Positions 19,142 through 58,802 of a stretch of DNA of 64,000 bases are shown here, in pieces (within the stretch, counting starts at the first letter, position 1; every line of letters starts with the position of its first letter). The DNA lies in the NCBI GenBank assembly GCA_018433085.1, contig JAHDRW010000012.1, positions 20,606 through 84,605 of the forward strand. Reading direction: 5' to 3'. The DNA is from Deltaproteobacteria bacterium. GTDB taxonomy: Bacteria; Desulfobacterota; Desulfomonilia; UBA1062. Made by a program: the position numbers and the translations under genes. The notes below the pieces were generated by a model. The model was not told where the DNA came from. It ran no database searches and saw nothing but the letters and a program-made list of their open reading frames with translations.

Positions 19142-19158
19142 GCAGGCAGGAAGAACCG

Positions 19159-35171: not shown

Positions 35172-35235
35172 CTTCTCGTCCCCTTTGGTTTCTTTCCGTC
35201 CCGTGGCTCTCTCTTCCCGCCGGCCCCGGCACCCG

Positions 35236-36501: not shown

Positions 36502-36528
36502 CTTCTTGTCCTCTCTATCTTGCGAATG

Positions 36529-37311: not shown

Positions 37312-37418
37312 GGCCTTTTCCTCCATTGTAGAATGCCCTCTTCACCGGCATGTCTGCCTGTCGCACATCATGGCAGCCTGGCCGGCCGCCGGGCGCGAGC
37401 CCTCGATGATTGTCCTCA

Positions 37419-38471: not shown

Positions 38472-38489
38472 CAGAGGCTTCTCCTTTCT

Positions 38490-39473
38490 CTACAGTGTCC
38501 TCTCCATGGTGCTCTTCACCGCGGCAACCACATCGTCCGCACTGGGGACATAGTATTTTTCCAGGCTGTAGGATGCCGGCGCAAACGGGGCGCCTACCCG
38601 CACGATCGGGGCGTCGAGCTCGTCCAGGATCTCCTCGGCCGCCGCCGCCGCTATCTCCGCCCCGAACCCGAACTGCTTGACCGCCTCATGGGCGATCACC
38701 AGCCGGTGGGTCCTGGCCACGGATTCGAACACGGTCTGGCGGTCCCAGGGTTGAATCGTCATGAGGTCCACCACCTCCGCGCCGATCCCCTCCTGTTCGA
38801 GGATCTTGGCCGCCTTCAATGACTCGTGCACCATCCGCGACGCAGTCACGATCGTGACATCGCCGCCCCGGAGCTTCACATCCGCCTTCCCCAGCGGCAG
38901 CACCACGTCCTCGTCCGCCTCGGCGGCCATGCCCTTCATGGCGTGAAGAGTCTTGTTCTCGATAAAGATCACCGGGTTGTCATCCCGGATGGATGCCTTA
39001 AGAAGGCCTTTGACGTCGTGCGGGGTCGCCGCCATGACCACCTTGAGCCCCGGCACATGGGCGAACCAGGCCTCCAGGCACTGGGAATGCTGCGGACCGG
39101 CGTTGAGGCCTCCGCCCTCGGGCATCCTCACCACGACCGGCACCGTGTACTGATTGCCGAACATATAGCGCATCTTGGCGATCTGGTTCACGATGCTGTC
39201 CATGGCGCAGGTCACGAAGTCCATGAACATGATCTCTACGATGGGCCTCAGCCCGCAGCTCGCCGCTCCCGCGGCCAGCGACGTGAAGCCGAGCTCGCTG
39301 ATGGGCGTGTCGACCACCCGCTCCGGACCGAACTTCTCATAGAGCCCCTTGCTGGCGCCGAAGGAGCCTCCGGCCAACCCGACGTCCTCCCCGATGAGGA
39401 ACACGTTCTCGTCGCGCTCCATCTCTTCTTCCATGGCCTCTTTTATCGCAAATATGTATCGCGTCTCTTTCAT
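38490..39473 (-). CDS. Acetoin dehydrogenase / 2-oxo-acid dehydrogenase E1 beta subunit (AcoB-like)
   Basis: Transketolase-like C-terminal fold. FLIGEDVG...GG.F and PISE..F motifs. 327 aa. Confidence 0.85.
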   Translation of the reverse strand: MKETRYIFAIKEAMEEEMERDENVFLIGEDVGLAGGSFGASKGLYEKFGPERVVDTPISELGFTSLAAGAASCGLRPIVEIMFMDFVTCAMDSIVNQIAKMRYMFGNQYTVPVVVRMPEGGGLNAGPQHSQCLEAWFAHVPGLKVVMAATPHDVKGLLKASIRDDNPVIFIENKTLHAMKGMAAEADEDVVLPLGKADVKLRGGDVTIVTASRMVHESLKAAKILEQEGIGAEVVDLMTIQPWDRQTVFESVARTHRLVIAHEAVKQFGFGAEIAAAAAEEILDELDAPIVRVGAPFAPASYSLEKYYVPSADDVVAAVKSTMERTL

Positions 39474-39488
39474 CCGTCGATCCTCTTT

Positions 39489-40481
39489 TTACACGTAGAG
39501 TCCTTCCAGCATCTCCGATACGTCCGGATAGGTGCACTGGCGGGCGAAGTTCACGGCATCTTCCACCTCCGCGCTCACCTCCGCCTGAATCCGATCGAGG
39601 TCCTTCCGCTTGAGCACCCTGCCCTTGATGAGCTCAGCCTCGAAGTCGGCTATGCAGTCCTCTGCCATCGCCTCCTCGACCTTCTCCTTGCCGCGGTACT
39701 TCTGCGCATCGCCCACATAGTGTCCGTGCCAGCGGTTGCACCTGATTTCCAGAAGGCTCGGACCCTTTCCTTCCCTGGCCCGCCTGACCGCCTCACCCGC
39801 GGCCTCGTAGATCTCCACCACACGATTGGATACCGATACCGCCGGGATATCATAGGCAAGGGCGCGGGAGGTTACGGACTCCACGGGCATATGGACCGTC
39901 CTGGGGGAAAATTCCGCCCAGCCGTTGTTCTCGCACACGAACACCAGGGGCAGCTTCCTGATGGCGGCAAGATTCATGGTTTCGTGAAACGCCCCTTCGC
40001 CCGTGGCGCCCTCTCCGAAGGTGGCGACGGCCACATGGTCCGTCTTCTTGTACTGAGCGGCAAAGGCGGCGCCCGCTGCGATGGGTATCCCGCCTCCCAC
40101 GATCCCGTTGGCGCCCATGATGCCGATGCCGGCGTCCGCCAGATGCATGGAACCCGAGCGACCCAGGCAGAAACCTTCCTTTTTTCCGAACAGCTCCGCC
40201 ATTGCCCGCCTGATCTCGATCCCCTTGGCGACAGCCCACCCATGCCCCCGGTGAGTCGTGCTGATGGAATCATTCGCGTTCAGGTGTGCGCATACCGCGG
40301 CCGGCGCCGCCTCCTGTCCGATGCTCACATGCAGGAAGCCCAGGATCTCGCCCCGGGAAAAGACTTCCATGAGCATCTCCTCGACCTTGCGGATCCGAAC
40401 CATCATGGTGTAAAAATCAGTCAGCATATCCTTCGATGGTCTGTTCATATTCTCGGTCCCCTTTTTCTCGGATATTCCCAT
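39489..40481 (-). CDS. Acetoin dehydrogenase / 2-oxo-acid dehydrogenase E1 alpha subunit (TPP-binding, AcoA-like)
   Basis: GFLHVSIGQEA, the GDG.xxEG TPP motif (FGEGATGEGAFHETMNLA) and VFVCENNGWA. An alternative start at 40448 has an RBS. Confidence 0.85.
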   Translation of the reverse strand: MGISEKKGTENMNRPSKDMLTDFYTMMVRIRKVEEMLMEVFSRGEILGFLHVSIGQEAAPAAVCAHLNANDSISTTHRGHGWAVAKGIEIRRAMAELFGKKEGFCLGRSGSMHLADAGIGIMGANGIVGGGIPIAAGAAFAAQYKKTDHVAVATFGEGATGEGAFHETMNLAAIRKLPLVFVCENNGWAEFSPRTVHMPVESVTSRALAYDIPAVSVSNRVVEIYEAAGEAVRRAREGKGPSLLEIRCNRWHGHYVGDAQKYRGKEKVEEAMAEDCIADFEAELIKGRVLKRKDLDRIQAEVSAEVEDAVNFARQCTYPDVSEMLEGLYV

Positions 40482-40688
40482 CTTCTTGAATGCGTACCAT
40501 CTGTTACCGCCTCTGAAGGGCTTGCCCGATCAGTCCTTCCGGCTACTGTCCGGCTCTCGTGTGTTCGGTCCGTGTTTCGTCCCCTGTCGGAAAAACCTGC
40601 CCTGAAATTTCTTTTTTACGGTTTACCCGAACAAAGCAACAAGCGTACCAATAAAAAATACGTTTCATTCTTCTTTTATTATCAATGT

Positions 40689-40739: not shown

Positions 40740-40770
40740 CAATATTGAACAAGGCGATTGTTCAATATTG
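40740..40770. promoter_or_regulatory. Perfect 12-bp inverted repeat CAATATTGAACAA-ggcgat-TGTTCAATATTG upstream of the aco promoter
   Basis: Seen directly in the sequence; located 35-65 bp upstream of the putative -24 element. Confidence 0.5.
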
Positions 40771-41547: not shown

Positions 41548-43233
41548 CTATGCCTTTTCCATCTTCGCGAGCTCTTCTTCCTTGAGAACCCGTCTCAACA
41601 CCTCGCCCTTGTTACTGATGGGGAGCGAATCGCGGATTTCCACGACCGGGACCTTGTACGCGGCGACATTGTTCTTGAACCACTGCCTCAGCTCCTCTGC
41701 CGTCAGGCTGTATCCGGGCTTCAGGGTGATGAACACCTTCGGCTCTTCCATCTTCTTCGGGTGCGGTATCCCGATAGCCACGATCTTGTCGATGGCCGGA
41801 TTCGCCAGGCCGAGGACCTCAAGCTCCCTCGGGGCCATGATATAGCCGGTGACCTTGATGATGTCCCGGTGACGGCCGTAGTAGTACACCATGCCGTCTT
41901 CCTTGAGCGCCCCGATGTCGCCGGAGTACATCCATCCGTCCACGATTTCCTTTGCGTTGATCTCGGGCTTGTTCCAATAACACTTCACCTGGGATGGGCA
42001 CTTGACCACGATCTCTCCCCGCTGCCCGAGAGGCAACTCTTTCCTCGTCTCGAAGTCCACGATCTTGATCTTGGTGCCCGGGGCCAGGGTGCCCACGCCT
42101 ACGGCACCGGGGTCTTCAAAGGGGTCTTCGATTCCCAGGCCTCCGCACGCGCAGTAGTTGAAGCTCTCGGTTCCGAGGGCGTATCCGAAGTTGTCCAGCC
42201 TGCAGCCGGTGATCTCGCGCCACTTGTCGGCGACTTCCCGGGTAAAGGGGATGGCGAAGGGAACCGTGTTGCAGGTGGTGAAGCTCGTGAGATCGTATTT
42301 GTCCCTGTCGGGATGGTTTATGATGCTGGCGACACAAGGCATGGGCCACGAGAACTTGGTCACCCGATATTTATGTATGGCTTCCAGAGCGGCCGTGGTA
42401 TCCCACCTCGCCAGGATGAGAATGGTGTATCCGCAGTAGAAGGACCCGGCGATCCCGGTTGACAGCCCGTACATGTGGGTGTGGGGCACCGGCGTCAGCA
42501 GGACGTCGTCCTTTGTCGTGTCCAGCAGGAGGTGGGCGATACCCGCTCCTCCGAGAAGGGTGGTGAAGTGCGTGTGGAGGCACCCCTTCGGAAACCCGCT
42601 CGTGCCTCCCGTATAGAGGATCCAGGCATCATCGTGCAGATCGACCTTGACGTCAGGCGGCGTATCCGGATACTTCGCAAGGAGATCGAGGTATTCATAG
42701 GTGCCGGGGAAGGTCTGCTTTTCCGCCAGCATCATGGGGTGCAGCGGGAAGGCCGGCTCTTCGGGCATGAAATCGTGGAAGCTCGTTACGATGATATCCT
42801 TGATGCCGCATTTATCCTTCACGTTTTTGACGACCGGATACAGCTGGTCGAGAACGATCATGAAATTCGCCTGAGAGTCGTTCAGGGCGTATTCGAGCTC
42901 CAGCTCCTTGTGCATCGGATCGATCGGCACGCTCACCAGACCCAGCTTGAACGCCGCGAGATAGATAACATAGCATTGGGGGCAGCTCTGGATGAAGACC
43001 GCGACCCGATCGCCCTTCTTGTAGCCCATCGCCGAGAAGGCGTTTGCCAGCCTGTTGCTCCAGTCTTCAAGCTGTCTCCACGTCAGCTCCTTCCCGTAAT
43101 AGTTCACGACTGCCTTATCAGGATTTTCCCTGGTGTGAATCTTTACGTATTCCGCCAACGGCATTTCGCCGTGCAGCAGGTCAACGTGATCCATCTTCGC
43201 CCTCTCGCCGTGCAGAAGGTCAACGTGCTCCAT
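41548..43233 (-). CDS. AMP-forming aryl/acyl-CoA ligase (benzoate-CoA-ligase-like class I adenylating enzyme)
   Basis: YTGGTSGFPKGCLHTH and YGRHRDIIKVTGYIMAPRELE... motifs. The N-terminus contains a tandem duplication (MEHVDLLHGERAK / MDHVDLLHGEMPL). Confidence 0.85.
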   Translation of the reverse strand: MEHVDLLHGERAKMDHVDLLHGEMPLAEYVKIHTRENPDKAVVNYYGKELTWRQLEDWSNRLANAFSAMGYKKGDRVAVFIQSCPQCYVIYLAAFKLGLVSVPIDPMHKELELEYALNDSQANFMIVLDQLYPVVKNVKDKCGIKDIIVTSFHDFMPEEPAFPLHPMMLAEKQTFPGTYEYLDLLAKYPDTPPDVKVDLHDDAWILYTGGTSGFPKGCLHTHFTTLLGGAGIAHLLLDTTKDDVLLTPVPHTHMYGLSTGIAGSFYCGYTILILARWDTTAALEAIHKYRVTKFSWPMPCVASIINHPDRDKYDLTSFTTCNTVPFAIPFTREVADKWREITGCRLDNFGYALGTESFNYCACGGLGIEDPFEDPGAVGVGTLAPGTKIKIVDFETRKELPLGQRGEIVVKCPSQVKCYWNKPEINAKEIVDGWMYSGDIGALKEDGMVYYYGRHRDIIKVTGYIMAPRELEVLGLANPAIDKIVAIGIPHPKKMEEPKVFITLKPGYSLTAEELRQWFKNNVAAYKVPVVEIRDSLPISNKGEVLRRVLKEEELAKMEKA

Positions 43234-43330
43234 CTCTATGCTCCTTTCTCCTGTATAAGTATTTTATTTGCCTTTAAGGATCGAACCGATCCCGGATATT
43301 GGTGCTTCCCTGTCTATCCGTTGCTCCCCC

Positions 43331-44575
43331 CTATTTGTTTTCCAGCATCTCGAAGAAGGCGTCCAGACGCTGCTGGACCTGCCCGTCGGCATAGGTCCTT
43401 TCATCTGCTTGATCGACATCGATGAGGACCACCGGCAGATGGAATCTCTCGTGGATGAGGTTGGCAACATCGAGGGCGCCTGTGGACATGATCTTGCAAC
43501 TCTTGTTGATAGCGACCACGGCGCCGTCGATCTTGAACTCCTTGATATCCCGGGCCAGTCTGTCGCCGATGCAGCCGTAGAGCGTCTCGGCGATCGTGGA
43601 GCCGCACCCGCCTTCAAGGCCGAAGCTGAGCCCTTTCTTCGCGAAGTACTCGATCGGCTCGCTGTCTTCGAAGTCCTGGGTATACCAGAGGTAACGGTTA
43701 TAGTCGCCGAACGGGAAAACACATCCCCTCTGTGCGAAATAATTCACGAACCCGAGGCGATACCACGGCGGGATATTGAACATCACGAGCCGGTGCCGCT
43801 CATCCTGGATCGCACCTTCCCGATTCTTGATCCGCTCTTTGATTTCCGCAGTCGCCAGCTTCAGGAGATCGACCCCGTGCTGGGTGCCCGAGAGCGAGCT
43901 GGGGACGAATATCAGATTCGCCAGATCGGAGAGATTCATCGGGGCAGGCACCGCCTTGTTCAGATCGAGCAGCTCGCGCCAGTATTTACCCTGCTCACGG
44001 GAGAGGCGGGCGGTTTCCTTCAGTTTCTGATCCGTCACCTTGTTCCCGCTGATCTTTTCGAGCTGTCCGATGCACTCTTCCATCTCCCGCGCAACGTACC
44101 GGATGTAGTAGTCGGGCACCTCGTGATCGAACATGCGGTGGGGGGTGTTCAGGACCACGTACGGCTTGTCGAAGAAGAGTCGCAGGGCATCGAACCACTT
44201 CAGGTAGTTCAGGCATGCGTTCGAGACCACCATCAGAAGGTCCGGCTTCGGTATCCCCCCGAGCGGATGATCGTTATCCTGCGCCAACAGGTATCCGAAG
44301 TTGTTCCGGATATAAGAACAGAGCTCGGGCTTGTAGTTGTTCGCCTCGGCGATCGTGCAGTATTTTTCCGAAAAATGCTGCGCAGCGCAGACACACGCAT
44401 AGTTTTCGGGATACGCCACCCGGATTCCGAGCATCCGGCAGATATCGTTCAGCGGATTCGAGCTCACTACCGACCATGCGAGAGGATGACCGGCCCAGAT
44501 ATCTTCATAATATTGACGAAGAGCTGCACTGACGGCCTTTGCCGATTCCAAGCGTTTAGGTTTATTCTCAGACAT
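43331..44575 (-). CDS. 2-hydroxyacyl-CoA dehydratase / benzoyl-CoA reductase family subunit (HgdB/BcrB-like), pair 1
   Basis: About 415 aa. HGDH_B-type conserved Cys pattern (CAAQHF..., GGCGST). aaggagag RBS. 20 bp downstream of the alpha-like partner. Confidence 0.75.
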   Translation of the reverse strand: MSENKPKRLESAKAVSAALRQYYEDIWAGHPLAWSVVSSNPLNDICRMLGIRVAYPENYACVCAAQHFSEKYCTIAEANNYKPELCSYIRNNFGYLLAQDNDHPLGGIPKPDLLMVVSNACLNYLKWFDALRLFFDKPYVVLNTPHRMFDHEVPDYYIRYVAREMEECIGQLEKISGNKVTDQKLKETARLSREQGKYWRELLDLNKAVPAPMNLSDLANLIFVPSSLSGTQHGVDLLKLATAEIKERIKNREGAIQDERHRLVMFNIPPWYRLGFVNYFAQRGCVFPFGDYNRYLWYTQDFEDSEPIEYFAKKGLSFGLEGGCGSTIAETLYGCIGDRLARDIKEFKIDGAVVAINKSCKIMSTGALDVANLIHERFHLPVVLIDVDQADERTYADGQVQQRLDAFFEMLENK

Positions 44576-44595
44576 GGTATCTCTCCTTGCAGATG

Positions 44596-45702
44596 TTATT
44601 TCATGATGGATTCGATAAATCCTTCGATGCGAGTCTGAACTGGGGCCATATCGCACATATACTCCGTCTCGACAAAGCCAACCGGCACGCCCTTTTTGCG
44701 CAGCTCTCTCTCCAGATACGGAAAGTCCATTACTTCCGACTCACATGCCCTCTCTATGGCAAAGATCACCCCGTCGACGGCGTATTCCTGAACCAGATCG
44801 ATCAGATAGCTCATCCGATACTCGGCGGATATCGAGAATGGACAGGGGAGATTCGCATAGCTCCTGGCAATGGCCAGCAGCGGATCCTCGCCACTGTCGC
44901 TCTGGCCGGCCAGGGACCTCAGCCCCATGTTGGTGTCGTCACAGACTACGGTCGCGCCTGCGGCCTGGATGGTCTCGTAGATCCTCCCGTCGGTAAGGCA
45001 GGGCCCAGACACCAGGAGACGGGCTTTGGGCCTTTCTCCTGCAGGAAGATCCCGTATCTCGGAAAACAGCTTTTCCAGGAGGCGGTTGTTCTCCTCCTTA
45101 TCCATCACATGAGACACCATGAAAACATCGAACAGGTCTACACCGTTCAGGGGGGGCCTCTCCTGTTTCATCAAACTGCAGATATTCCCCAGCAGCTCTC
45201 TGTTCCGGTTATACACATCGATCGCATAGGTGAGCGCCTCTTCGAAGATTTTCCGGCCGGTGAATTCTTCCAGCTCCTTCTTGAGATTTTCCAGATCGTC
45301 CCTGAAAAAGGTCAGCGCGTTCTTCGTCTTGTTGAATCTCAGGCCCGCCATGGTCGCCACAAAGTCATTCTTCCGGTGATACCGCCATCCGCGGGCGAAA
45401 TATGTAACGGTCTCACACGACTCGGGCAGAACGACCCCGTCGAGAAAAGGATACTGGCCTTTGAGAACCTGGTCCCAGATGGCCCGGAAGATCGATGAGG
45501 TATAGACATGCAAATGCGCGTGCGCCATGTTGGTCTGTTCTCCGGGAAAGGGGAAGAGCCTGAATGGATGGAGACCTGCCGCGTGAATGACTTCTTGCGG
45601 AACAATCGGGTGCATGACGCCAATAAACTTTTTTTCAGACCGGCTGGAGGCTTCTGAAAGATACGCCCTCATATCCCTGGCGATTTGATTGATTTGTTCC
45701 AT
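44596..45702 (-). CDS. 2-hydroxyacyl-CoA dehydratase / benzoyl-CoA reductase family subunit (HgdA/BcrC-like), pair 1
   Basis: About 370 aa. FIGVMHPIVPQEVIHAAGLHPFRLF N-terminus and Cys residues typical of HgdA-type [4Fe-4S] subunits. Confidence 0.75.
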   Translation of the reverse strand: MEQINQIARDMRAYLSEASSRSEKKFIGVMHPIVPQEVIHAAGLHPFRLFPFPGEQTNMAHAHLHVYTSSIFRAIWDQVLKGQYPFLDGVVLPESCETVTYFARGWRYHRKNDFVATMAGLRFNKTKNALTFFRDDLENLKKELEEFTGRKIFEEALTYAIDVYNRNRELLGNICSLMKQERPPLNGVDLFDVFMVSHVMDKEENNRLLEKLFSEIRDLPAGERPKARLLVSGPCLTDGRIYETIQAAGATVVCDDTNMGLRSLAGQSDSGEDPLLAIARSYANLPCPFSISAEYRMSYLIDLVQEYAVDGVIFAIERACESEVMDFPYLERELRKKGVPVGFVETEYMCDMAPVQTRIEGFIESIMK

Positions 45703-45779
45703 GGCCGTCATTGGTGTTTTCCTCCTTGATAAACTTTCTTCCGTTTCTGTTTTGCAACAGTATCATCATTGATAACCGG

Positions 45780-46583
45780 TTACTTCTTGTCTCCGGGAAA
45801 CGTCGAAGGGAATCTGGGCTCCCGTTTCTCCTTGAACGCGGCAATGCCCTCCTGCATATCGTCCGAGAGCATCGTCATGACGTGTCCTCTGGCCTCATAC
45901 TCTACGGCCGTCGCCAGATCCATGGTGAGGCACTGGTACAGCGCCCTCTTGGCCATTCCCATCGCGAACGCCGGCCCTTTCGCCAACCGCCGGGCCAGCT
46001 TCATGGTTTCGTCTTCGAGCTGATCCGGCGGGACCACCCGGTTGACCAGGCCGATATCCCTCGCCTCGAAGGCATCGACGACCCTGCCGGAAAAGACCAG
46101 CTCCGCCGCCCTGGCCACGCCGATGAGGCGCGGGAGAAAGTAAATCGCCCCCGTATCGCTCTGAACCCCGATGTTCAGGTACACGTGGCCCAGCTTGGCC
46201 TTTTCGGAGGCGATCAGGATATCGGCGGCCAGGGCCAGGCCGAATCCGCCTCCGGCAGCCGCACCGTTGATCATCGCGATCACCGGTTTGGGCATGTTCC
46301 TGAGGTTGACCGCGACCTGTCCGAATGTCTGGACGACCTTTTCCAACTCGCCTGGGTCCTTGATATGGTACATGGGGGAGCTGAGATCCCCTCCCACGCA
46401 GAACGCCTTGCCCATGCCTGTGATGATGACCACCCGTGTATCCCTGTCTTCTGCCGCGTGCCTGGTGGCTTCTATGAGCTCACGGCACATGTCCATGGTC
46501 ATCCCGTTGAGGCTTTCCGGACGGTTCAGAGATATTCGGGTTATCCCGTCCTGCTGCTCACAGATGATATTCTGGTAATCCAT
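45780..46583 (-). CDS. Enoyl-CoA hydratase/isomerase (crotonase family)
   Basis: LNRPESLNG, ITGMGKAFCVGGDL and INGAAAGGGFGLALAADI. gagggagaag RBS before MDYQNII. Confidence 0.85.
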   Translation of the reverse strand: MDYQNIICEQQDGITRISLNRPESLNGMTMDMCRELIEATRHAAEDRDTRVVIITGMGKAFCVGGDLSSPMYHIKDPGELEKVVQTFGQVAVNLRNMPKPVIAMINGAAAGGGFGLALAADILIASEKAKLGHVYLNIGVQSDTGAIYFLPRLIGVARAAELVFSGRVVDAFEARDIGLVNRVVPPDQLEDETMKLARRLAKGPAFAMGMAKRALYQCLTMDLATAVEYEARGHVMTMLSDDMQEGIAAFKEKREPRFPSTFPGDKK

Positions 46584-46651
46584 CTTTCTTCTCCCTCTCA
46601 TGGTTCGATTGCCGTATGTTTGTTTCCCTGTCCTCTTGTGCCGGATATCCT

Positions 46652-48047
46652 TTATCCGTACGCGATCGAAGGCAGCCACGTGGCCAGCTCGGGCCAGAAC
46701 ATGACGGCTAGCAGACCAAGGACCTGAATGATGACAAAGGGAATGATCCCCTTGTAGATATCCACCAGCTGTACCTCAGGAGGGCATGCACCCTTCAGAT
46801 AGAATATCGCGAAGCCGACCGGAGGTGTGAGAAAGGACGTCTGGAGACAGATGGCGATGAGGATCGTGAACCAGATCAGGTCCGGATTGTCCAGCACGCC
46901 GAAGCCCTCTATGCCCAGAGCCAGCTTGCCGATGACCGGCCCCACGAGGGGGAGAATGATGAAGGTGATCTCGATCCAGTCGAGGAAAAACCCGAGCAGG
47001 AACACCCCGAGCAGTATCACGGTCAGGATACCGTACGGTCCGAAGGGCAGGCCCAGAAGAAACGATTCGATCACCTCGTCGCCGCCGAGCATGCGCATCA
47101 CCAGAGCAAAACAGCTCGCCGCTATGAGGATAGCGAAGATATAGGCGATCGTGCCGAAGGTCTGGTGCAGCACATCCTTGAATATCTGGAGATTCAGCTT
47201 CCGGTTGATGAGGGCGATCAGCGTGGCCCCGAACGCGCCGACGCCGCTCGCCTCCGTGATCGTGGCCATACCGGTGAAGATGGAACCGAGCACCGCGACC
47301 ATCAGCCCGAGGGGCGGCAGGATGGTCTTGAACACATCCCATACCACTTTCATCTGGAAGGGCTGCCGGTCTTCGCTCAGCGGGGCTTCCCGGGGCCTCA
47401 TAAAGGCATAAATCAGGATAAAGATCAGATACATCACGCCCAGGAGAATACCGGGGATAAAGGCCGCCATGAAGAGATCGCCGACCGCGAGTTGGAGCTG
47501 CTCCCCCATCATGACGAGCATGACGCTCGGAGGAATCAGGATACCCAGGGTGCCAGCCGCGCACACGGTGCCGGTGGCGAGGGACCGTGAATACCCCTGA
47601 TGGATCATGGCCGGCAGGGACAACAACCCGAGCAGGACGACCGAAGCCCCGATGATCCCCGTAGACGCCGCCAAGAGGATGCCGATAATGGCCACCGAGA
47701 CCGCGAGACCGCCGCGCACCTTGCCGAACAGATTCTGCATGGAATGCAGCATATTCTCGGCAATGCCCGAGCGGTCGAGCATCAGCCCCATGTACACGAA
47801 CATGGGCAGGGCGACCATCACCCAGTTCTCGAGAACACTGTATATGCGGTTGACAACCATCCCGAAAGAATTGAAGTCCAGAAAGGTCATAGTGCCCATA
47901 TATTGGTCAGCCAGATACCCGATTAGGGTGAACACCACCGAGATGCCGCCCAGAATGAACGCAATGGGATAACCGGTGAAAAGGAGAGCGATAAAGCTTA
48001 TGAACATCAGTATTATCAATATGGTATTTATTTCCACCTTACTGCTC
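46652..48047 (-). CDS. dctM: TRAP transporter large permease subunit (DctM family)
   Basis: About 465 aa, 12+ TM segments. YPIAFILGG N-terminus and the conserved GILIPPS motif. GTG start with aaggag RBS. Confidence 0.85.
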
Positions 48048-48566
48048 CTTCTTGATAAGCAATGCAAGGGATCGAACCATGCGGCTTAGAATGGCGACCC
48101 CCAGCAACCCGAATCCCAGCGGGATGAACAGCTTGATCAGCCATCGGTATGGCAGACCCATCGGGGCTGCCGAACACTCGCTGATCATCCAGGAATTATG
48201 GAAAAAGGCCCATCCGTGCACCATGATGATGATCCCCCAGGGAAAAACTAGGAAAAGGGATCCGAAAAGCTCGATCTTTTCCCTGGTGCGGGACCGGAAC
48301 CTGCTGCTCATAACGTCAAGCCGGATATGGGTATCCTTCGCCACCGCATACGCAAGGCCGAACATGACGTTCACCGAATAGAGGTACCATTCCATTTCAT
48401 CCAGAACGACGAGACCGTTCGAGAAAAAATAGCGCAGAATCACCTGGGTAATGATCAGCACCAGCAGCACGCCATTCAACCACGCAAGCGTGTTGCCTAT
48501 GCGGACGATGCCCCTGTCGGTGAAATCACTGATGGTGAGGAGAGACGAGGAAATGTCATTCATCAT
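48039..48566 (-). CDS. dctQ: TRAP transporter small permease subunit (DctQ family)
   Basis: 175 aa with 4 TM segments. Its 3' end overlaps the dctM start by 9 nt. Confidence 0.75.
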   Translation of the reverse strand: MMNDISSSLLTISDFTDRGIVRIGNTLAWLNGVLLVLIITQVILRYFFSNGLVVLDEMEWYLYSVNVMFGLAYAVAKDTHIRLDVMSSRFRSRTREKIELFGSLFLVFPWGIIIMVHGWAFFHNSWMISECSAAPMGLPYRWLIKLFIPLGFGLLGVAILSRMVRSLALLIKKEQ

Positions 48567-48693
48567 ACTATCCGTCCACGTTTGATGATGGTGATCCGGA
48601 GGATGCCGGGCAAGAACCCCGGCACCGTCCAGATCGTGAATTTATGGTTCTCTTTAAGCCTCTTACAGTCGTATTGAAGCCTGCCGCAGCCGA

Positions 48694-49770
48694 TTACTTT
48701 TCCGGTTCCGGCCTGGGAAGAGTCCCGTACGCCAGCCAGTAATTGTAATCCGGGAAGAACTCCTGCATGTCGTCCCATACCTTCTTGAAGCTGGGATCCT
48801 GCTCTCTCAGATCCTTCACCACGTCCATCCATGCGGCATGAATGGAATCGAGCATGTCCTCCGACCACCGCTTGTTGATAACACCACGCTTCTTGGCGTT
48901 GTTCTTGATGATCGGGCCTTGGATACTTTCCACATAGGAAATACCCTCAAGCGTCGCGGCCCGGCAGGTCAGCTCGATCATGGTTCTCTGGGTCTCACTC
49001 ATCTTGTTCCATACATCCTTGTTGATCAGCAGCTCGATGATGGTCGAAGGCTGGTGCCACCCGGGGAAATAATTGTACTTCACGACCTTGTACAGCCCGG
49101 ACGGCTCGTCAATGGCGGGCGATCCGTTTTCCACGGCATCGATGGCCTTTTTCTCGAGCGCCGAGAACACCTCGCCGACAGGTACCAGCGTAACGTTGAC
49201 CCCGAGCTTCTCCAGGGCGCGACCACCGTGGCCTGCGATCCTCATCTTGAGCCCATTGAAGTCTTCCGGCTTCTCGACGGGTTTTGCAAACCAGCCGCCG
49301 CTGTCCGGACCCAGGATTCCGCAGACCAGAACCTTCACGTTATAGCCGTTCTGGTCGTAGAGCTCCTGATAGAGCTTCATGCCGTTGCCGTGATAGAGCC
49401 ACGCGAGGTATCCGTTTATCTCGGGCCCGAACGGCACGCTTCCAAACAGCGGGGCAGCCGGCATCTTGCCCTGCCAGTAGTTTGCGCAGGAATATCCGGC
49501 CTGGATCTTCCCGTTGGAGACGGCGTCCAGGACCTCGAACGGCGGTACAAGCTTCCCGGGATCATAGACCATCATCTGAATCGAGCCGTCACTCACCGCC
49601 TTGAGATTCTCCGCTGTCCACGAGATGGTGGTGCCAAGGCCCGGAGTCTGCATCCCGAAACAGCTCTGGACACGCATGCGCACATCGCCCGCTATCGCCG
49701 GAACCGCTGAAGCCACCAGGAAAAATGCCGAAAGAATCACCGTACAGATCGTTGTTGCAACCTTACTCAT
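48694..49770 (-). CDS. dctP: TRAP transporter periplasmic solute-binding protein (DctP family)
   Basis: Signal peptide plus a DctP-type fold (GSVPFGPE..., RIAGHGG motifs). gaaggggg RBS. Confidence 0.8.
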   Translation of the reverse strand: MSKVATTICTVILSAFFLVASAVPAIAGDVRMRVQSCFGMQTPGLGTTISWTAENLKAVSDGSIQMMVYDPGKLVPPFEVLDAVSNGKIQAGYSCANYWQGKMPAAPLFGSVPFGPEINGYLAWLYHGNGMKLYQELYDQNGYNVKVLVCGILGPDSGGWFAKPVEKPEDFNGLKMRIAGHGGRALEKLGVNVTLVPVGEVFSALEKKAIDAVENGSPAIDEPSGLYKVVKYNYFPGWHQPSTIIELLINKDVWNKMSETQRTMIELTCRAATLEGISYVESIQGPIIKNNAKKRGVINKRWSEDMLDSIHAAWMDVVKDLREQDPSFKKVWDDMQEFFPDYNYWLAYGTLPRPEPEK

Positions 49771-50295
49771 CGTTTCCCCCTTCCGCTCTTATATGATTCA
49801 TTTCCAAGTCCACCGAAACGCCCTCCTATTAGGGTGTTCCCTGATAAACGATCTCCTTCCGCAGAGGAGAATTTATCCTCGCTCACCCACCAGATGCGGC
49901 CTATGACGCCAGTGATGCCCGGCTATCCTGAAGCCAGAGCCGGCCAGTGATCGGTTTTATGGTTCTGTTCCCGACAAGGTCTATTGGATTTCGTATGATT
50001 TCGTAGCTGCCTCACTGTGCTGTTTTTTATGAACGTGACTGCCGGCTGCAACAGCTGGCAGACGCTCGCCAGTTTCTCACAATATTCCACATATATCAAC
50101 TCGACCTTATAGTCCGGCCTGGGATGTACCTGCTCCGGTTCGTTTATTTTCTCATTTTGTACTATTCCAACTGACCATGTTTTCTTCATGCTTTTTGTAA
50201 CCGCTCTATCTCTCGTCATCTCTCCTTTGGCGGCGCTTCCCCCTACCAGATTATCATTCGCTTTCTGAAAGGCCCATGCAGTCTGCATACCCTTC

Positions 50296-51555
50296 CTAGA
50301 AAACGACCTTCCCGACAGACGGCTTGTTTGATTCGAGGGCTTCGGCAAAGGTTTCCAGCCTGATCCCCGTTTTCTCTTCGTCGAAAAAGGTGTCGTCCAC
50401 GAGGTCGCCTTCGATGATGGTAGACAGGACACCGAGCTTTTTCTGAACATAGTCCGCGATGTAGTGCATGGTGATGGAGAACGGCTTGCAGGTCATTGCA
50501 TATGCGAAGATCCCGGCCTCCATGTCATAATCCCTGTATAACTGCTCCGTGTACTCCGCCTTGTACCTGACATCTCTGTTGAGATAGAAGTAGGCGGTGT
50601 TCTCGGCAACGCTGTCCAGAGGTCGCTCCGGGTCGCTCCGGTCAAAGGCAAACAACTGGGAGTACGCACTCGTAACGAGGCAGATTCCCAGGCTTTGCAG
50701 TTTCTTCGACAGGAATCTCATGGCAAACCAGTACGGAATGCCGTCCCAGTACACCCTGTGCTTCATGTTCTCGAAGGGGACGATCCCTTCCCTGATCCTC
50801 TCGTTCATCTCCTGTTTCATCAGCCGGTAATGGTCTGCCACCTCGGGTTTGTATCTGAGCACGAGGTTCGGGAAATTATGGGGCATCAGGTCGAAGTAGG
50901 TTGACGGCGAGGGTTTGTGCTTGTTTATCTTTATCATGTCCGTATATCCCTTCGCACTCTCGCTGCCGTTCCTCACGACCTCCCTGAGCCTGTCGAGATC
51001 GAACTTCTTTCCGGTAAACTCCTCGAGGAAACGAATGAGATCCCCTATCTGGCCCTTGATATGACCGATGACATCCTTTTCCTGTATTCCCGGGATGATA
51101 TAGGGCGTATCGATGTGTATCATGGGGACGTCCCAGTAGTGACTGAGATGCTCCCACCACTTGGTGATGAGGCTGCAGCTGTTGTTGGCGACCAGCAGGA
51201 GATCGGGCGCGGGCAGCGGGTCGAACGGGTCCAGGCCTTCAATATCAGCCAGGGTCGACCCGAGACCGTTGCGGCAATAGGTGCACAGATGATGCTCGTA
51301 CCCCTTGTCTTCAGTGATCTTGCAGTGCCGGTAAGCCGCGTGCCGCGCCCCGCATGTGGCTGCATACGCCTCCGGGAACAGCACGCAGAAGTCCATCGCC
51401 CACAGTATCTCGTTGGGAGCGGCCGTAGTGGTCCACACGATCGGCTTCCGTTTCGACTCCTTGATCTCGCGGGCTTCCCGGTAATGATCGACAATCAACT
51501 TGCCAAGCCGATTCTGGGATTCCAACCTGTTGCCGATTTTCACCTCTGTTCCCAT
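50296..51555 (-). CDS. 2-hydroxyacyl-CoA dehydratase / benzoyl-CoA reductase family subunit (HgdB-like), pair 2
   Basis: 419 aa paralog of 43331..44575 (shared LLLVANNSC / LLMVVSNAC and Cys positions). aaggag RBS. Confidence 0.75.
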   Translation of the reverse strand: MGTEVKIGNRLESQNRLGKLIVDHYREAREIKESKRKPIVWTTTAAPNEILWAMDFCVLFPEAYAATCGARHAAYRHCKITEDKGYEHHLCTYCRNGLGSTLADIEGLDPFDPLPAPDLLLVANNSCSLITKWWEHLSHYWDVPMIHIDTPYIIPGIQEKDVIGHIKGQIGDLIRFLEEFTGKKFDLDRLREVVRNGSESAKGYTDMIKINKHKPSPSTYFDLMPHNFPNLVLRYKPEVADHYRLMKQEMNERIREGIVPFENMKHRVYWDGIPYWFAMRFLSKKLQSLGICLVTSAYSQLFAFDRSDPERPLDSVAENTAYFYLNRDVRYKAEYTEQLYRDYDMEAGIFAYAMTCKPFSITMHYIADYVQKKLGVLSTIIEGDLVDDTFFDEEKTGIRLETFAEALESNKPSVGKVVF

Positions 51556-51569
51556 TCACAACTCCTTTT

Positions 51570-52355
51570 TTATTCGGATCCAAGCCTGGATTTTGCGACA
51601 AGGGCAGCACCAAAGGCAGTGACAATCTGTGGATCTTCAGGCACGGTTATTTCACGTTTCATCGTACTGGCAAGAAGCGAAACGATCGCATCGTTTCTCG
51701 CGACCCCGCCAGTCATCACTACCCTTCCTGTGTCCCCGGGACCGATCGAGTTGATCAGCCCGTAAACACGGCTGACAATCGATTCGTGCAGCCCTGCGGC
51801 AATGTCTTCCTGCGGTGTCCTGCGAGCGATGAGGGATACGATCTCGGTCTGGGCAAACACGGTGCACGTACTGCTTATTCTGATCCTGTTTCCGGATCTC
51901 CTCGATAATGCTGCCAGCTCGGCAACGCTCACTCCGAGGGTCTCTGCGGCCACCTCCAGGAATCTACCTGTTCCGGCTGCACACTTATCGTTCATGGCGA
52001 AGTTGACCACCTTACCCTCGTCGTTTATCTTGATCGCCTTGCTGTCCTGGCCGCCGATATCCACGACCAGCCTTGCATCGGGATAGAAGTGGTAGGCACC
52101 CACGGCGTTGCAGGTGATTTCCGACATCGTGTCCGCTGCGAAAGGCACACTGACCCGCCCATACCCTGTCGCAACTATGCGTTGAATGTCATCGAAGGTG
52201 TGGCCGAGCTCCTGTGCCGCATTTTCGACAACCTTCCGGGCCACTGCATACAGATCCGTACCAGTCGGGAATAATGCTGACCGGAAGACATGATCCTCCT
52301 TGAGAACAACGGCTTTCGATGTCTGCGATCCGATATCAACACCAGCTACTATCAT
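51570..52355 (-). CDS. HgdC/BcrAD-type ATPase 'activase' of 2-hydroxyacyl-CoA dehydratases (CoA-substrate-specific enzyme activase)
   Basis: MIVAGVDIGSQTSKAVVL (ASKHA-fold N-terminus) and NDKCAAGTGRFLE (cluster-bridging Cys motif), about 262 aa, as in HgdC. It is the only such ATPase in the cluster. Confidence 0.85.
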   Translation of the reverse strand: MIVAGVDIGSQTSKAVVLKEDHVFRSALFPTGTDLYAVARKVVENAAQELGHTFDDIQRIVATGYGRVSVPFAADTMSEITCNAVGAYHFYPDARLVVDIGGQDSKAIKINDEGKVVNFAMNDKCAAGTGRFLEVAAETLGVSVAELAALSRRSGNRIRISSTCTVFAQTEIVSLIARRTPQEDIAAGLHESIVSRVYGLINSIGPGDTGRVVMTGGVARNDAIVSLLASTMKREITVPEDPQIVTAFGAALVAKSRLGSE

Positions 52356-52377
52356 GGCTTCACCCTCATTCGTTGTT

Positions 52378-53532
52378 TTAGAGACTGAGCATTTCCAGAT
52401 ATCCCTGTATCCTCGTTCTCTGCGTCTCCAAAGATCCGGCTTCATGCCCTGTATTGAGCGTGATGTGGGCGATGTTCTGCTCTTCCAGCCTTTTTTTCAG
52501 CATGACGAACTCCAGATCAAAGGGGTCGCAGTACATTTCTCTCAATAGGATGACTCCCTGGATCCCGTTCTCCAGCACATAGTCCGCAACATAGTCGCCG
52601 TAGGTGGAAAGGGATCTGTCCTGTTCAATCCAGTTTTGGGGGTAGTGGTAGGTTGTACAGGGAGTGAGGCCCAGGTAGAAATCGGCATATGCCTCGACCG
52701 GGTCTCCGGAACAGGGCACATCGACCGAGAAATAGCGCGACCCGGTGAAAAAATCGTCCCCAACGATCACTGCACCCATCTCTTCGATCAGGTCCAGGAT
52801 CTCCTCTTCCGGCATGCCGCAGGGGTGTCCACAGACCATAATCTTCGGTTTTTCACCGGGCTCGCACTCCAGATCTTGGGCCTGAACGAGAAGCTTCTTC
52901 AGAAGCGAATTATACTCTTCCTTGGGCATGATCATCCCGGCGGCGATCGCCTTTGCCAGATCAGAGGACTTCAATAATCCGGGCCTGGTTTTCCTGATGT
53001 CATTCAATGCCCTCATAAGGGAACGTGTTTCATTGAAAAGACGAATGCTCTCACGGAGCTTATCCGGTGTTATGGCCTTGCCGGCGAACTCCTCGAGCCC
53101 GGATTTCAGCCTCTTGAGTTCGTTCAGCAGAAACGGGCGCGAGGCCTCGCTCATATTGAAGGGACGCCACATCTGATGAAAAAAGGCGAACTCATGATCC
53201 AGGCTCCAGACCTGAAAAAAGAACCTGACCTGGTCACAGATCAGCACCGCGGCAACCCCGTCCAGGGCATCATACTTCCCGGACAGCAAGTCTTCGAAGG
53301 TGCTCCGGACCGCCCCGCACGCATTGGTCATGAGGTGTCGGTTCGCATGGGTGATCGGCCCGTTGCCGCCGAAGAGCGTGACAGGCAGCAGACCTGCAGC
53401 ATGGACGAATTCTTCCGGAAAATACATGGGGAGGCAGCCGATGACCTTTCCCCCTGTATCATCTTTCCATTTTACTATTTCACTGTTCCGCCGAGAGTAA
53501 CGAAGCTTAAGATTATCCAAAATCGATTGCAT
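52378..53532 (-). CDS. 2-hydroxyacyl-CoA dehydratase / benzoyl-CoA reductase family subunit (HgdA-like), pair 2
   Basis: About 385 aa paralog of 44596..45702 (VIGCLPMYFPEEFVHAAGLLPVTLF versus FIGVMHPIVPQEVIHAAGLHPFRLF). First gene after the sigma-54 promoter. Confidence 0.75.
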   Translation of the reverse strand: MQSILDNLKLRYSRRNSEIVKWKDDTGGKVIGCLPMYFPEEFVHAAGLLPVTLFGGNGPITHANRHLMTNACGAVRSTFEDLLSGKYDALDGVAAVLICDQVRFFFQVWSLDHEFAFFHQMWRPFNMSEASRPFLLNELKRLKSGLEEFAGKAITPDKLRESIRLFNETRSLMRALNDIRKTRPGLLKSSDLAKAIAAGMIMPKEEYNSLLKKLLVQAQDLECEPGEKPKIMVCGHPCGMPEEEILDLIEEMGAVIVGDDFFTGSRYFSVDVPCSGDPVEAYADFYLGLTPCTTYHYPQNWIEQDRSLSTYGDYVADYVLENGIQGVILLREMYCDPFDLEFVMLKKRLEEQNIAHITLNTGHEAGSLETQRTRIQGYLEMLSL

Positions 53533-53597
53533 ATGTTTGCCCACCTGTCGTGATGATTAAAAGGCCTTATCTTTTTGCGTCGACATTTCAGGTGTAA

Positions 53598-53613
53598 GGC
53601 AAGAACAGTACCA
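53598..53613 (-). promoter_or_regulatory. Sigma-54 promoter (TGGTAC-tgttc-TTGCC) of the HAD operon
   Basis: Minus-strand read of ggcaagaacagtacca. GG/GC spacing is canonical. 55-65 nt upstream of the first gene. A near-identical copy lies at 58631. Confidence 0.7.
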
Positions 53614-53720: not shown

Positions 53721-53770
53721 GCCTGTAACAATATCTAACAAACCATGCTCCATTATGCTACATGTCACAG
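53721..53770. promoter_or_regulatory. Conserved about 50-bp upstream activating sequence (copy 1) roughly 107 bp upstream of the sigma-54 promoter
   Basis: gcctgtaacaatatctaaca-aacc-atgctccattatgctacat-gt-cacag. 45/50 identical to 58753..58802. Contains helical-phased direct repeats TAACA(N6)TAACA and ATGCT(N5)ATGCT. Confidence 0.65.
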
Positions 53771-54027: not shown

Positions 54028-54528
54028 TTACTCGCCGAGATGCACGATGAGAACGGGTTTCGTGCACTTGCGGACAACATGCCTGGCGGTATAGTCCAGC
54101 AGGGCCTTCCCCACGGAGGTCACGGAATGCGCGCCCACAATGACCAGGTCGAACCCCTGCTCGTCGACCATGGTGAGGATGGTCTTCTCTGCATTCCCGA
54201 GGACAACGGTCACATTTTCGACAAACTCATCGAATTCGGCACCTTCGCACATTCGGGTGCAGGTGTCCTGAAGCCGCCTCTGAATGACTTCCAGGGCCTC
54301 CTGCTGATTTTTCTTCAGCAGTTCTTCCCACTTTTTTTCTCCCACGACAGAGCTCACCAGGGAAGACGTACTCTGAGACATTTTCTCGATGACATGCAGC
54401 GCGGTAATCTTTGCCTGAAATCGTTTGGCAATGCTGAGCGCATACCCGAATGCATGTTCCGCCCTCTCGGACAAGTCGGTCACATACAGGACCCGTTTGA
54501 AATCATAGTTCATGATCATTCCTTTCAT
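54028..54528 (-). CDS. Universal stress protein (UspA family)
   Basis: RVLYVTDLSE N-terminus and VIVGAHSVTSVGKALLDYTARHVVRKCTKPVLIV (ATP-binding G-2x-G-9x-G(S/T) region). Confidence 0.8.
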   Translation of the reverse strand: MKGMIMNYDFKRVLYVTDLSERAEHAFGYALSIAKRFQAKITALHVIEKMSQSTSSLVSSVVGEKKWEELLKKNQQEALEVIQRRLQDTCTRMCEGAEFDEFVENVTVVLGNAEKTILTMVDEQGFDLVIVGAHSVTSVGKALLDYTARHVVRKCTKPVLIVHLGE

Positions 54529-54745
54529 GCTTTATCAACAGTGACTTTCGTGCATCCCGGGACCGGTCACGCGCGCTTGCACGCAACGGACCCCGAGACG
54601 CTTCAAGATTCTTTCCCCGGAGAATTCACGCATGCCTCACGTATAACAGCCTCTCGGACGTGACGTCCATGGATCGTATCGTCGGCTATTCCCGGGCACG
54701 AGCCGTCCTTCCTCCCCTCTTCTCAAGAGGCCTGTTCTCGTGAGC

Positions 54746-58346: not shown

Positions 58347-58630
58347 ACGCTTACCCCCTTGATGTTTTTTGTAAACCTTTCACCTTCGACATCTCAATGC
58401 AGCTGTGCCCGTTGGAGTTATGGTATTTTTTCCCACAAGCAATGAATCCGATTTCTTCATTCTTGCTGCAATTGCCTCAGCCATGGTCTTTGAAGCCTCA
58501 CGCGCTCGATGCGTCCCTGGCTGGAATCAGTCGGGCAGGGCTCACATGGTCTGTAAGTTCTTCTGCCGGGAGCACATTGTTGGTTTTTCGATAATCTTCC
58601 CCAAGCGACTGAGCCCTGCGGATATTCTCA

Positions 58631-58646
58631 GGCAAAAACAGTACCA
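58631..58646 (-). promoter_or_regulatory. Sigma-54 promoter (TGGTAC-tgttt-TTGCC) of the oxidoreductase-AOR-usp operon
   Basis: Minus-strand read of ggcaaaaacagtacca; the flanking bases are also conserved with the copy at 53598. Confidence 0.7.
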
Positions 58647-58752: not shown

Positions 58753-58802
58753 GCCTGTAACAATATCTAACAGGTAATGCTCCATTATGCTACATACCAC
58801 AG
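58753..58802. promoter_or_regulatory. Conserved about 50-bp upstream activating sequence (copy 2)
   Basis: gcctgtaacaatatctaaca-ggta-atgctccattatgctacat-ac-cacag. Same 107-bp spacing to its sigma-54 promoter as copy 1. Confidence 0.65.

Follow-up and report, generated by a model that had tools for sequence, protein, structure and literature searches.

The 64-kb stretch of DNA considered here (contig JAHDRW010000012.1 of the Deltaproteobacteria bacterium assembly GCA_018433085.1; hereafter the window, which always means the whole stretch) carries an operon that encodes two different pairs of subunits of the 2-hydroxyacyl-CoA dehydratase (HAD) type, but only one activase (archerase). The genes lie on the minus strand between positions 41548 and 53613, co-directional and uninterrupted and with every open reading frame (ORF) intact, in the order beta1, activase, alpha1, DctPQM, crotonase (ECHa), beta2, alpha2 and AMP-forming acyl-CoA ligase (Table 1). 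The ORF of beta1 reaches further than the ATG given in the table, up to a GTG at position 53544. The sequence-only reading from which this work started had described a sigma-54-driven operon with two pairs of the HAD/benzoyl-CoA reductase superfamily, one activase, a CoA ligase, a crotonase and a tripartite ATP-independent periplasmic (TRAP) transporter, and this inventory was confirmed. Ligase, crotonase and transporter match the Pfam families AMP-binding, ECH_1 and DctP/DctQ/DctM, a -24/-12 element precedes beta1, and a tblastn search of the 64-kb window with the activase returned only the activase itself. The 262-aa activase is the product of 51570-52358; another 262-aa ORF that had been listed (46776-47564) lies out of frame inside dctM. 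The two pairs had been called paralogous, which is generous: they are related, but distantly, with 25.5% identity between alpha1 and alpha2 and 30.6% between beta1 and beta2.

A locus of a sibling genome (L013; the labels L001 to L119 denote the loci and contigs compared) has the same gene order as the window, with 86-98% amino-acid identity. Between the two, dN/dS was 0.03-0.15 across all 15 genes compared, and all the genes of the operon are under purifying selection. It had been asked whether the second pair might be a pseudogene; its ORFs are intact and its dN/dS values are within 0.03-0.13 (0.030 for alpha2, 0.126 for beta2), which rules this out. A scan of the operon for internal sigma-70 promoters and terminators gave background-level matches only, and none that was convincing between the activase and pair 2. 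The 525-bp stretch between alpha1 and dctP (49771-50295) contains no convincing ORF, promoter or terminator, while the annotation of the sibling metagenome-assembled genome (MAG) has two small ORFs there. An exact-sequence look-up for the window alpha1 matched no record.

Among solved structures, HadBC of Clostridioides difficile (3o3m) is the best match of all four subunits. For alpha1, the E-value is 5e-48 with HadB (3o3m_A), as compared with 4e-22 for MbdO and 3e-17 for BzdO; for alpha2, it is 3e-45 with HadB and 3e-31 with the best reductase subunit; for beta1, 1.3e-53 with HadC (3o3m_B) and 4e-41 with the best reductase subunit. Only beta2 fits HadC and BzdN nearly equally well (3e-37 and 6e-36). 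The alpha subunits, which match HadB, are larger than the beta subunits, which match HadC (419 and 414 aa vs 384 and 371 aa), as in HAD. No characterized enzyme is closely orthologous to either pair: identity of both pairs to HadB/HadC is 24-32% (32% for beta1 and HadC), and the NCBIfam HadB and HadC models (NF052455 and NF052456) gave 154-212 bits, far under their cut-offs of 700-750. The equivalog models of BcrB/C and BzdN/O gave 79-194 bits (cut-offs 421-487), and the double-cubane model NF040772 gave 51-161 bits over the subunits (cut-off 350); with beta2, for which no NCBIfam model scored higher, it gave 156 bits.

The cluster ligands were examined by alignment. The cysteines equivalent to HadB Cys84/117/346 are invariant in alpha1, alpha2 and their orthologues, and so is the glutamate of a PE(N/A)Y motif near the unique iron; these cysteines correspond to BzdO Cys95/128/380 (numbering of the catalytic [4Fe-4S] ligands from PMC11971306). 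In the small subunits, Cys33/72/99/292/335 of beta1 match HadC Cys33/72/99/291/325, whereas beta2 and all its orthologues keep Cys99/290/323 but miss the equivalents of HadC Cys33 and Cys72 (BzdN Cys36/73). Counted by position against the six cysteines of BzdN (36/73/100/263/293/327), beta1 has five, the same as HadC, with none at the Cys263 spacing, and beta2 has three. The beta2 family (window, L009, L010, L012 and L017) also has a conserved Gly-Pro-Cys (Cys238) that is common to beta1 and is not found in HadC.

The double-cubane cluster proteins (DCCPs; DCCP/DCCP-R and YjiM/YjiL) are homologous to the beta-type subunits and have a homodimeric ATPase, but they are themselves homodimers, whereas the window encodes alpha-beta pairs. 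Their seven-cysteine motif, CX19CX18-19CX29CX166-170CX32-34CX32C (PMC7317905), is absent from all four subunits, and its absence rules out beta2 as a double-cubane protein. Judging from scores and motifs, both pairs are filed here as putative new, uncharacterized subfamilies of the HAD branch, and neither as reductases nor as double-cubane proteins.

It might be argued that one or both pairs are ATP-dependent reductases, either similar to class I benzoyl-CoA reductases or acting on enoyl- or aryl-CoA substrates. The nearly equal fit of beta2 to BzdN and its best NCBIfam model would agree with this, and the ligase, the two crotonases and the zinc-dependent alcohol dehydrogenase (Zn-ADH) of the locus loosely recall the lower pathway of benzoyl-CoA degradation. 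However, we consider this explanation very unlikely. The class I reductases (BcrABCD, BzdNOPQ, MbdONQP; structures 8s02 and 9g87) belong to the same superfamily, likewise combine catalytic and ATPase subunits, and are the second-best matches of the window proteins, but in their case two different ATPase subunits, ATP in stoichiometric amounts and a small-subunit [8Fe-9S] cluster with six cysteines are required (PMC11971306). In contrast, the window has one ATPase gene, weaker scores that stay far under the BcrB/C, BzdN/O and double-cubane cut-offs, and a beta2 that, counted by position, lacks half of the six cysteines. The accessory enzymes do not point to a benzoyl-CoA lower pathway either: Zn-ADH scores 102 bits with the Had dehydrogenase model TIGR03201 (cut-off 339) and is closest to butanediol dehydrogenase, and neither the Dch nor the Oah model is among the best 25 of the 73 NCBIfam families matched, for either crotonase. 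Finally, the ligase had been described as benzoate-CoA-ligase-like, which does not hold, as it scores only 173 bits with the benzoate-CoA ligase family TIGR02262 (cut-off 375); a better fit is found with the acyl-CoA synthetase PRK06178 (464 bits, under its cut-off of 782) and with FadD1/4-coumarate ligase structures, which are among its best matches. The number of ATPase genes, the model scores, the type of ligase and the missing Had match, together with the missing Dch and Oah matches among the best 25 families, thus led to the rejection of a benzoyl-CoA reductase with an aromatic pathway, and nothing points to the benzoyl-CoA-reductase-type chemistry or to the aromatic substrate that had been considered.

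The activase scores 262 bits with the 'acyl-CoA dehydratase activase' model TIGR00241 (cut-off 125). It is 55-73% identical to the activases encoded between beta1 and alpha1 orthologues in other genomes, and only 40-42% identical to those that accompany pair 2. The latter form a separate clade, 49-94% identical to one another and 35-46% identical to the pair-1 type, and Cys126 and Cys165 are conserved in both clades. On the basis of these identities, the activase of the window is of the pair-1 type. A second activase somewhere in the window, or a remnant of one between alpha2 and the ligase, was also considered and rejected, since tblastn found none and the gap is just 97 bp.

The neighbourhoods of the two pairs in other genomes were then compared, and each proved to be conserved, as a separate module. 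Orthologues of alpha1 (49-95% identity) were collected by a protein-collection search, and their neighbourhoods were taken from the encoding contigs and from a metagenome scan. The order beta1-activase-alpha1 was found in every pair-1 locus examined. This triad stands on its own in L001, L041-L046, L048, L049 and L051, and it is directly followed by genes for E1alpha, E1beta, Zn-ADH, crotonase and E2 in L005, L007, L038, L040 and L047. In these loci E3 follows where the contig continues, and LplB and LipA are present in L007 and L038; the contig of L039 stops after E1beta. Pair 2 was found in none of the other pair-1 loci examined, 14 of them with the triad alone or beside the E1/E2/E3-ADH-crotonase cluster. 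As judged from gene order, pair 1 and its activase are a conserved independent three-gene unit. In L005, genes for a GltD-like protein and a member of the aldehyde oxidoreductase (AOR) family lie directly 5' of beta1. In two unrelated genomes, biotin carboxylase genes are located just 5' of the pair-1 triad (L001, 3858-7372; L038, 129-1526), accompanied in L001 by a carboxyltransferase and an acyl-CoA dehydrogenase.

Outside the window and the sibling contigs that correspond to it, alpha2 orthologues (66-73% identity) were found at 10 loci with nine distinct arrangements (L009, L010/L011, L012, L015, L016, L017, L018, L019, L118 and L119). An activase gene directly follows alpha2 in all 10; the AMP-forming ligase usually comes next, a crotonase is often present, and a separate DctPQM often lies ahead. 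The window and the sibling contigs L004/L014 and L013 ('Deltaproteobacteria bacterium' LM3-B1m and SM3-B3m; 86-98% amino-acid identity) are the only ones in which alpha2 is directly followed by the ligase, and the 97-bp gap is at the site of the activase gene in the orthologous loci. The ligase of the window shares 70% identity with the ligase behind the activase in L012. Further downstream, L010/L011 encode another crotonase together with a thiolase, a 3-hydroxyacyl-CoA dehydrogenase and, with MeaB, a B12 mutase similar to Icm/Hcm. Besides the ABM-like one of the window, small proteins flank the module in L010 (ABM, weak match) and L012 (DUF1330).

The layout is probably that of two canonical HAD modules merged, minus one activase, and not that of a new enzyme class. 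The explanation that we favour, and that we hold to be probable, is that two independent HAD-type ketyl-radical systems were merged into the operon in this lineage only and now share one activase. Module 1 would consist of beta1, activase, alpha1 and the TRAP transporter, which is of the TakP type, and would work together with the AOR operon and the E1/E2/E3-ADH-crotonase operon on either side. Module 2 would comprise the crotonase, beta2, alpha2, the AMP-forming ligase and the small ABM-like protein; in other genomes it is free-standing, with TRAP transporter, beta2, alpha2, its own activase and ligase, to which several loci add a crotonase. A fragment of module 2 would have been inserted between the module-1 transporter and the E1 operon, and its activase would have been lost because an activase was already made from the same transcript, which is the simplest reading. 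The remaining activase is predicted to serve both pairs. Such sharing is plausible because heterologous combinations of activator and dehydratase work, as when HgdC of A. fermentans was used with HgdAB of C. symbiosum to engineer a butanol pathway (PMC6767645); for partners as distant as those of the window, it is a prediction.

If one considers, however, that the sibling MAGs LM3-B1m and SM3-B3m have on other contigs a complete second module 2 (beta2'-alpha2'-activase'-ligase'-ECH'; L017 and L018), pair 2 of the window might be served by a module-2-type activase encoded elsewhere, in which case the operon would have a single activase in appearance only, through being viewed in isolation. These second copies have two TRAP systems ahead and their own ligase and crotonase behind. 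Furthermore, at 16 loci with more distant beta2/alpha2 homologues (39-44% identity; L020 and L023-L037), mostly from Desulfobacteraceae, Desulfatiglandales and other deltaproteobacterial MAGs, no activase was found in the available sequence (up to 10 kb per side). It is thus common in these bacteria that a catalytic pair has no activase of its own nearby, activation in trans looks common, and the window activase is just 40-42% identical to the module-2 activases. On the other hand, pair 2 is co-directional with the activase, with no convincing promoter or terminator between them, and the loss of a gene that is elsewhere always adjacent is most simply seen as redundancy with an activase on the same transcript. 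We regard activation from elsewhere as rather unlikely, and it is compatible with the merger and the shared activase, as the two are not mutually exclusive.

A layout of two pairs and one activase is not unique to the window, because it recurs in L085 (metagenome contig Ga0209164_1000955, 5444-13348), where the order is activase-beta-alpha-beta-alpha, with two HGD-D pairs. This locus is flanked by an AOR-family gene, by MeaB and by a gene similar to methylmalonyl-CoA mutase. No operon with two pairs and one activator, nor a link between HAD and acetoin dehydrogenase, was described in the papers searched; a paper on Geobacter concerned an orphan activase only. For the papers searched, the claim of an undescribed architecture stands as far as the layout is concerned, but not in its implication of one integrated architecture, since two separate modules are found instead.

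The -24/-12 element of the dehydratase operon has the pattern TGGTAC-N5-TTGC, and motifs of this form occur four times in the window, against 0.41 expected. When the upstream regions were aligned, the two blocks (19 nt and 20 nt) at 53721-53763 proved identical to those at 58753-58795, 5' of the AOR operon, and a related palindrome precedes the E1 operon. The gene of a sigma-54 enhancer-binding protein (GAF-PAS-AAA+-HTH_8) lies nearby; its top NCBIfam match, over the full length, is DhaR (410 bits, under the cut-off of that model), and it is the candidate regulator of these sigma-54 operons. A spaced -24 GG/-12 GC element together with a nearby enhancer-binding protein is what a sigma-54-dependent operon has, and from these motifs the dehydratase operon is predicted to be part of a larger regulon, as one of three adjacent sigma-54 operons. 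The locus is thus not the self-contained pathway that had been proposed, because it has upstream sequence in common with the AOR operon and is linked to the E1 operon by the gene order conserved in other genomes. The fourth motif is located 5' of a porin-like gene (30045-31169, plus strand), with a related upstream motif at 29523-29535. The encoded 374-aa protein has a signal peptide and a C-terminal Phe and is without a Pfam match; it may provide outer-membrane entry for the same regulon.

Table 1. Features of the dehydratase operon and of the neighbouring operons (positions in the window).
Feature	Positions	Strand	Evidence and remarks
Sigma-54 motif 5' of porin-like gene	29611-29625	+	Motif search
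E1 operon, downstream, whole	31476-40481	-	Pfam, NCBIfam
LipA	31476-32546	-	
LplA/B-type lipoyl ligase or transferase	32345-33115	-	
E3	33444-35171	-	
E2	35236-36501	-	
Crotonase ECHb	36529-37326	-	
Zn-ADH	37419-38471	-	
E1beta	38490-39473	-	
E1alpha	39489-40481	-	
Sigma-54 promoter of E1 operon	40636-40650	-	Motif search
Palindrome 5' of E1 operon, related to the shared upstream blocks	40740-40770		TTGTTCAATATTGAACAA
Small ABM-like protein after ligase, 101 aa	41118-41423	-	Pfam ABM 23.8 bits (cut-off 23.1)
AMP-forming acyl-CoA ligase, 561 aa, module 2	41548-43233	-	Pfam AMP-binding 223 bits
alpha2, putative catalytic subunit of dehydratase 2, 414 aa	43331-44575	-	Pfam HGD-D 206 bits
beta2, putative small subunit of dehydratase 2, 371 aa	44596-45711	-	Pfam HGD-D 243 bits
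ECHa, crotonase / enoyl-CoA hydratase	45780-46583	-	Pfam ECH_1 208 bits
DctM, large TRAP membrane subunit	46652-48037	-	Pfam DctM 242 bits; TIGR00786 275 bits (cut-off 268)
DctQ, small TRAP membrane subunit	48039-48566	-	Pfam DctQ 77 bits
DctP, solute-binding protein	48694-49770	-	Pfam DctP
alpha1, HadB-like catalytic subunit of dehydratase 1, 419 aa	50296-51555	-	Pfam HGD-D 188 bits
Activase (archerase), 262 aa, pair-1 type	51570-52358	-	Pfam BcrAD_BadFG 202 bits
beta1, HadC-like small subunit of dehydratase 1, 384 aa	52378-53532	-	Pfam HGD-D 258 bits; ATG at 53532
Sigma-54 -24/-12 promoter of dehydratase operon	53599-53613	-	TGGTACtgttcTTGC; ~65 nt 5' of beta1 ATG
Upstream activating sequence (putative)	53721-53763	-	ATGTAGCATAATGGAGCAT + 4-nt gap + TGTTAGATATTGTTACAGGC; motif search, alignment
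AOR operon, upstream, including promoter	54028-58646	-	
Universal stress protein	54028-54528	-	
AOR-family oxidoreductase	54746-56653	-	
GltD-like FAD/Fe-S subunit	56646-58346	-	
Sigma-54 promoter of GltD-like/AOR/universal stress protein operon	58632-58646	-	Motif search
Sigma-54 enhancer-binding protein, GAF-PAS-AAA+-HTH_8, 727 aa (candidate regulator)	59069-61252	-	Pfam

Acetoin dehydrogenase (Aco) operons are organized as AcoABCL and controlled by sigma-54 and AcoR. The E1, E2 and E3 genes of the window, followed by LipA and the lipoyl ligase or transferase and placed behind a sigma-54 promoter, presumably recall operons of this kind. Like AcoABCL with butanediol dehydrogenase, the E1 operon combines genes for E1alpha, E1beta, E2 and E3 with lipoylation genes and a Zn-ADH, and it goes with a sigma-54 promoter and a GAF-PAS-AAA+ activator; unlike them, it has a crotonase inside the operon and is conserved beside a radical dehydratase. 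The closest solved structure of Zn-ADH is (R,R)-butanediol dehydrogenase 6ie0 (250 bits, with 175 for the next structure), E1alpha and E2 score under the pyruvate dehydrogenase equivalog cut-offs, and the two crotonases ECHa and ECHb are 33% identical. Annotated plasmid homologues of the E1 complex were compared with a view to pyruvate, branched-chain or acetoin dehydrogenase; the best are ~44% identical and carry generic names, and the one neighbourhood examined (Rhizobium, H2) is a sugar-associated cluster. The E1/E2/E3 complex could be acetoin-dehydrogenase-like, possibly with a 2-oxo acid rather than an acyloin as its substrate.

In the window and in L005, the AOR, of the tungsten-type aldehyde oxidoreductase family, is accompanied by a GltD-like FAD/Fe-S subunit. 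Genes of the AOR family lie directly beside three different HAD subfamilies (window, 54746-56653; L005, 4001-6040; L009, 1-1602; L085, 11414-13348).

As to uptake, the transporter behind E3 in L005, where no pair 2 is visible, shares 72%, 60% and 74% identity with DctP, DctQ and DctM of the window, respectively. Identity to the transporters that adjoin pair 2 elsewhere is only 31-36%. Because of this difference, the TRAP system was assigned to module 1: it belongs with pair 1 and not with pair 2. The best solved structures for DctP are 2hzk (TakP, 184 bits), the 'ketoacid-binding protein' 7ug8 (177 bits) and then the lactate-binding TTHA0766; the DctP of the module-2 locus L012 is likewise closest to this TakP/keto-acid/lactate-binding clade. 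The scores (150-184 bits) indicate distant similarity, and ligand specificity is a prediction. In L012, a gene for a LarA-type 2-hydroxy-acid racemase lies a few kb 5' of module 2. Taken together, the clues from ADH, lipoyl genes, DctP and LarA fit short 2-hydroxy or 2-oxo monocarboxylates as candidate substrates, and they likewise agree with the usual order of events in HAD pathways, in which activation to the CoA thioester and radical loss of the 2-hydroxyl precede rehydration to 3-hydroxyacyl-CoA by a crotonase. Possible routes that were considered start from 2,3-dihydroxy acids, 3-hydroxy-2-oxo acids, deoxy-sugar acids, quinate or branched-chain 2-oxo acids.

The presence of two dehydratases and two crotonases raises the question of whether both pairs act in sequence on one substrate, either in two dehydroxylations of a di- or polyhydroxy acid or on the halves from an acyloin cleavage, so that the locus would encode one integrated pathway. 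The merged order is kept in three genomes and is under purifying selection, near-identical upstream sequence is common to the dehydratase and AOR operons, and HAD-type modules have AOR genes as neighbours again in L005, L009 and L085, all of which would be in keeping with integration. Nevertheless, it appears unlikely, since the two pairs are found apart in all the other genomes examined, each alongside a transporter and accessory genes of its own, which argues for separate substrates or entry points.

HAD enzymes eliminate the 2-hydroxyl group from a CoA thioester by way of a ketyl radical (PMC7317905), and the same chemistry is expected here. According to the mechanism that we propose for the merged operon, a short 2-hydroxy (or 2-oxo-derived) monocarboxylate would be taken up and converted into its CoA thioester, by the ligase in module 2, while in module 1 the E1/E2/E3 complex may do so. 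The homodimeric activase, reduced by ferredoxin, would then inject one electron into the cluster of the beta subunit with the aid of ATP. From there the electron would pass to the [4Fe-4S] cluster of the alpha subunit, to which the thioester carbonyl would be bound, so that a ketyl radical is formed and the 2-hydroxyl is expelled. The resulting 2-enoyl-CoA would be rehydrated by the crotonase to 3-hydroxyacyl-CoA, which would enter beta-oxidation.

Several points weigh against the merger with a shared activase. Identity to any characterized dehydratase is just 24-32%. Cross-activation of pair 2 is assumed, the activase being only ~40% identical to the usual pair-2 activases, and the module-2-type activase elsewhere in the sibling genomes could do this work. 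The cluster chemistry of beta2, which misses two cysteines of HadC and beta1, may differ. In addition, the merger leaves without explanation why a dehydratase is conserved beside an acetoin-dehydrogenase-like complex and an AOR, and the TRAP system, ECHa and the ligase of the window are not assignable to one substrate.

A bolder proposal, which we consider improbable and put forward as speculation, is that dehydratase 1, the acetoin-dehydrogenase-like E1/E2/E3 complex, ADH, crotonase and AOR form an undescribed anaerobic pathway. The thiamine diphosphate- and lipoamide-dependent complex would cleave or decarboxylate a hydroxylated acid previously oxidized by ADH and would deliver a 2-hydroxyacyl-CoA directly to the dehydratase, with no need for a ligase or transferase; the aldehyde or acid half would be processed by AOR, ligase and dehydratase 2, and one archerase would serve two evolutionarily distinct dehydratases.

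Among known systems, HadBC/HadI, HgdAB/HgdC, FldBC/FldI and LcdAB/LcdC are likewise built from a larger, catalytic alpha subunit and a smaller beta subunit, both of the HGD-D family and homologous to each other. The conserved cluster cysteines of the alpha subunit, and a separate activase of the ASKHA type encoded by a single gene and with two cluster cysteines, are also common to this group and to the window. The operons of the Had, Fld, Hgd and Lcd enzymes usually contain a CoA-transferase. In the window, an AMP-forming ligase is found in its place, and the operon further differs from that of Had in its two catalytic pairs per activase gene, its sigma-54 promoter, its TRAP transporter and a beta2 without two of the HadC cysteines. 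The host is also different, as it belongs to an uncultured deltaproteobacterial (Desulfobacterota-type) MAG lineage of the sulfate-reducer type and is not an amino-acid-fermenting clostridium.

Two further groups of genes in the window are recorded here. In the first (13132-20088), an AOR-family gene on the minus strand (15093-13132) and a gene for a TetR regulator (15436-16131) lie together with the genes for a glycyl-radical enzyme of 986 aa (16181-19141), which carries an N-terminal extension of ~190 aa, and for its activating enzyme (19159-20088); the glycyl-radical enzyme scores 398 bits with HypD, 392 with CutC and 385 with sulfopropanediol dehydratase (cut-offs 1000-1100). The second (22542-28645) contains an AMP-forming ligase (PRK12583-like, 735 bits), an ADP-forming acyl-CoA synthetase of 704 aa and an unusually long acyl-CoA dehydrogenase of 622 aa.

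The oxygen-sensitive HAD-type ketyl-radical dehydratases are known almost solely from amino-acid-fermenting clostridia and their relatives, each with its own activator and CoA-transferase. The two uncharacterized subfamilies described here appear to be widespread in Desulfobacterota-type and Bacillota MAGs, outside the fermenting clostridia, and their coupling to AMP-forming ligases, TRAP transporters and sigma-54 points to 2-hydroxy acid oxidation in anaerobic respiration or syntrophy. These findings leave the mechanism established for the HAD family as it is. The loss of an activase after the merger is a natural experiment, which suggests that archerases can serve non-cognate dehydratases whose usual partners are only ~40% related to them; if true, such sharing would be useful for the heterologous expression of HAD enzymes. 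Finally, a new catabolic route could lie behind the recurrent association of dehydratase 1 with an AOR and an acetoin-dehydrogenase-like complex.

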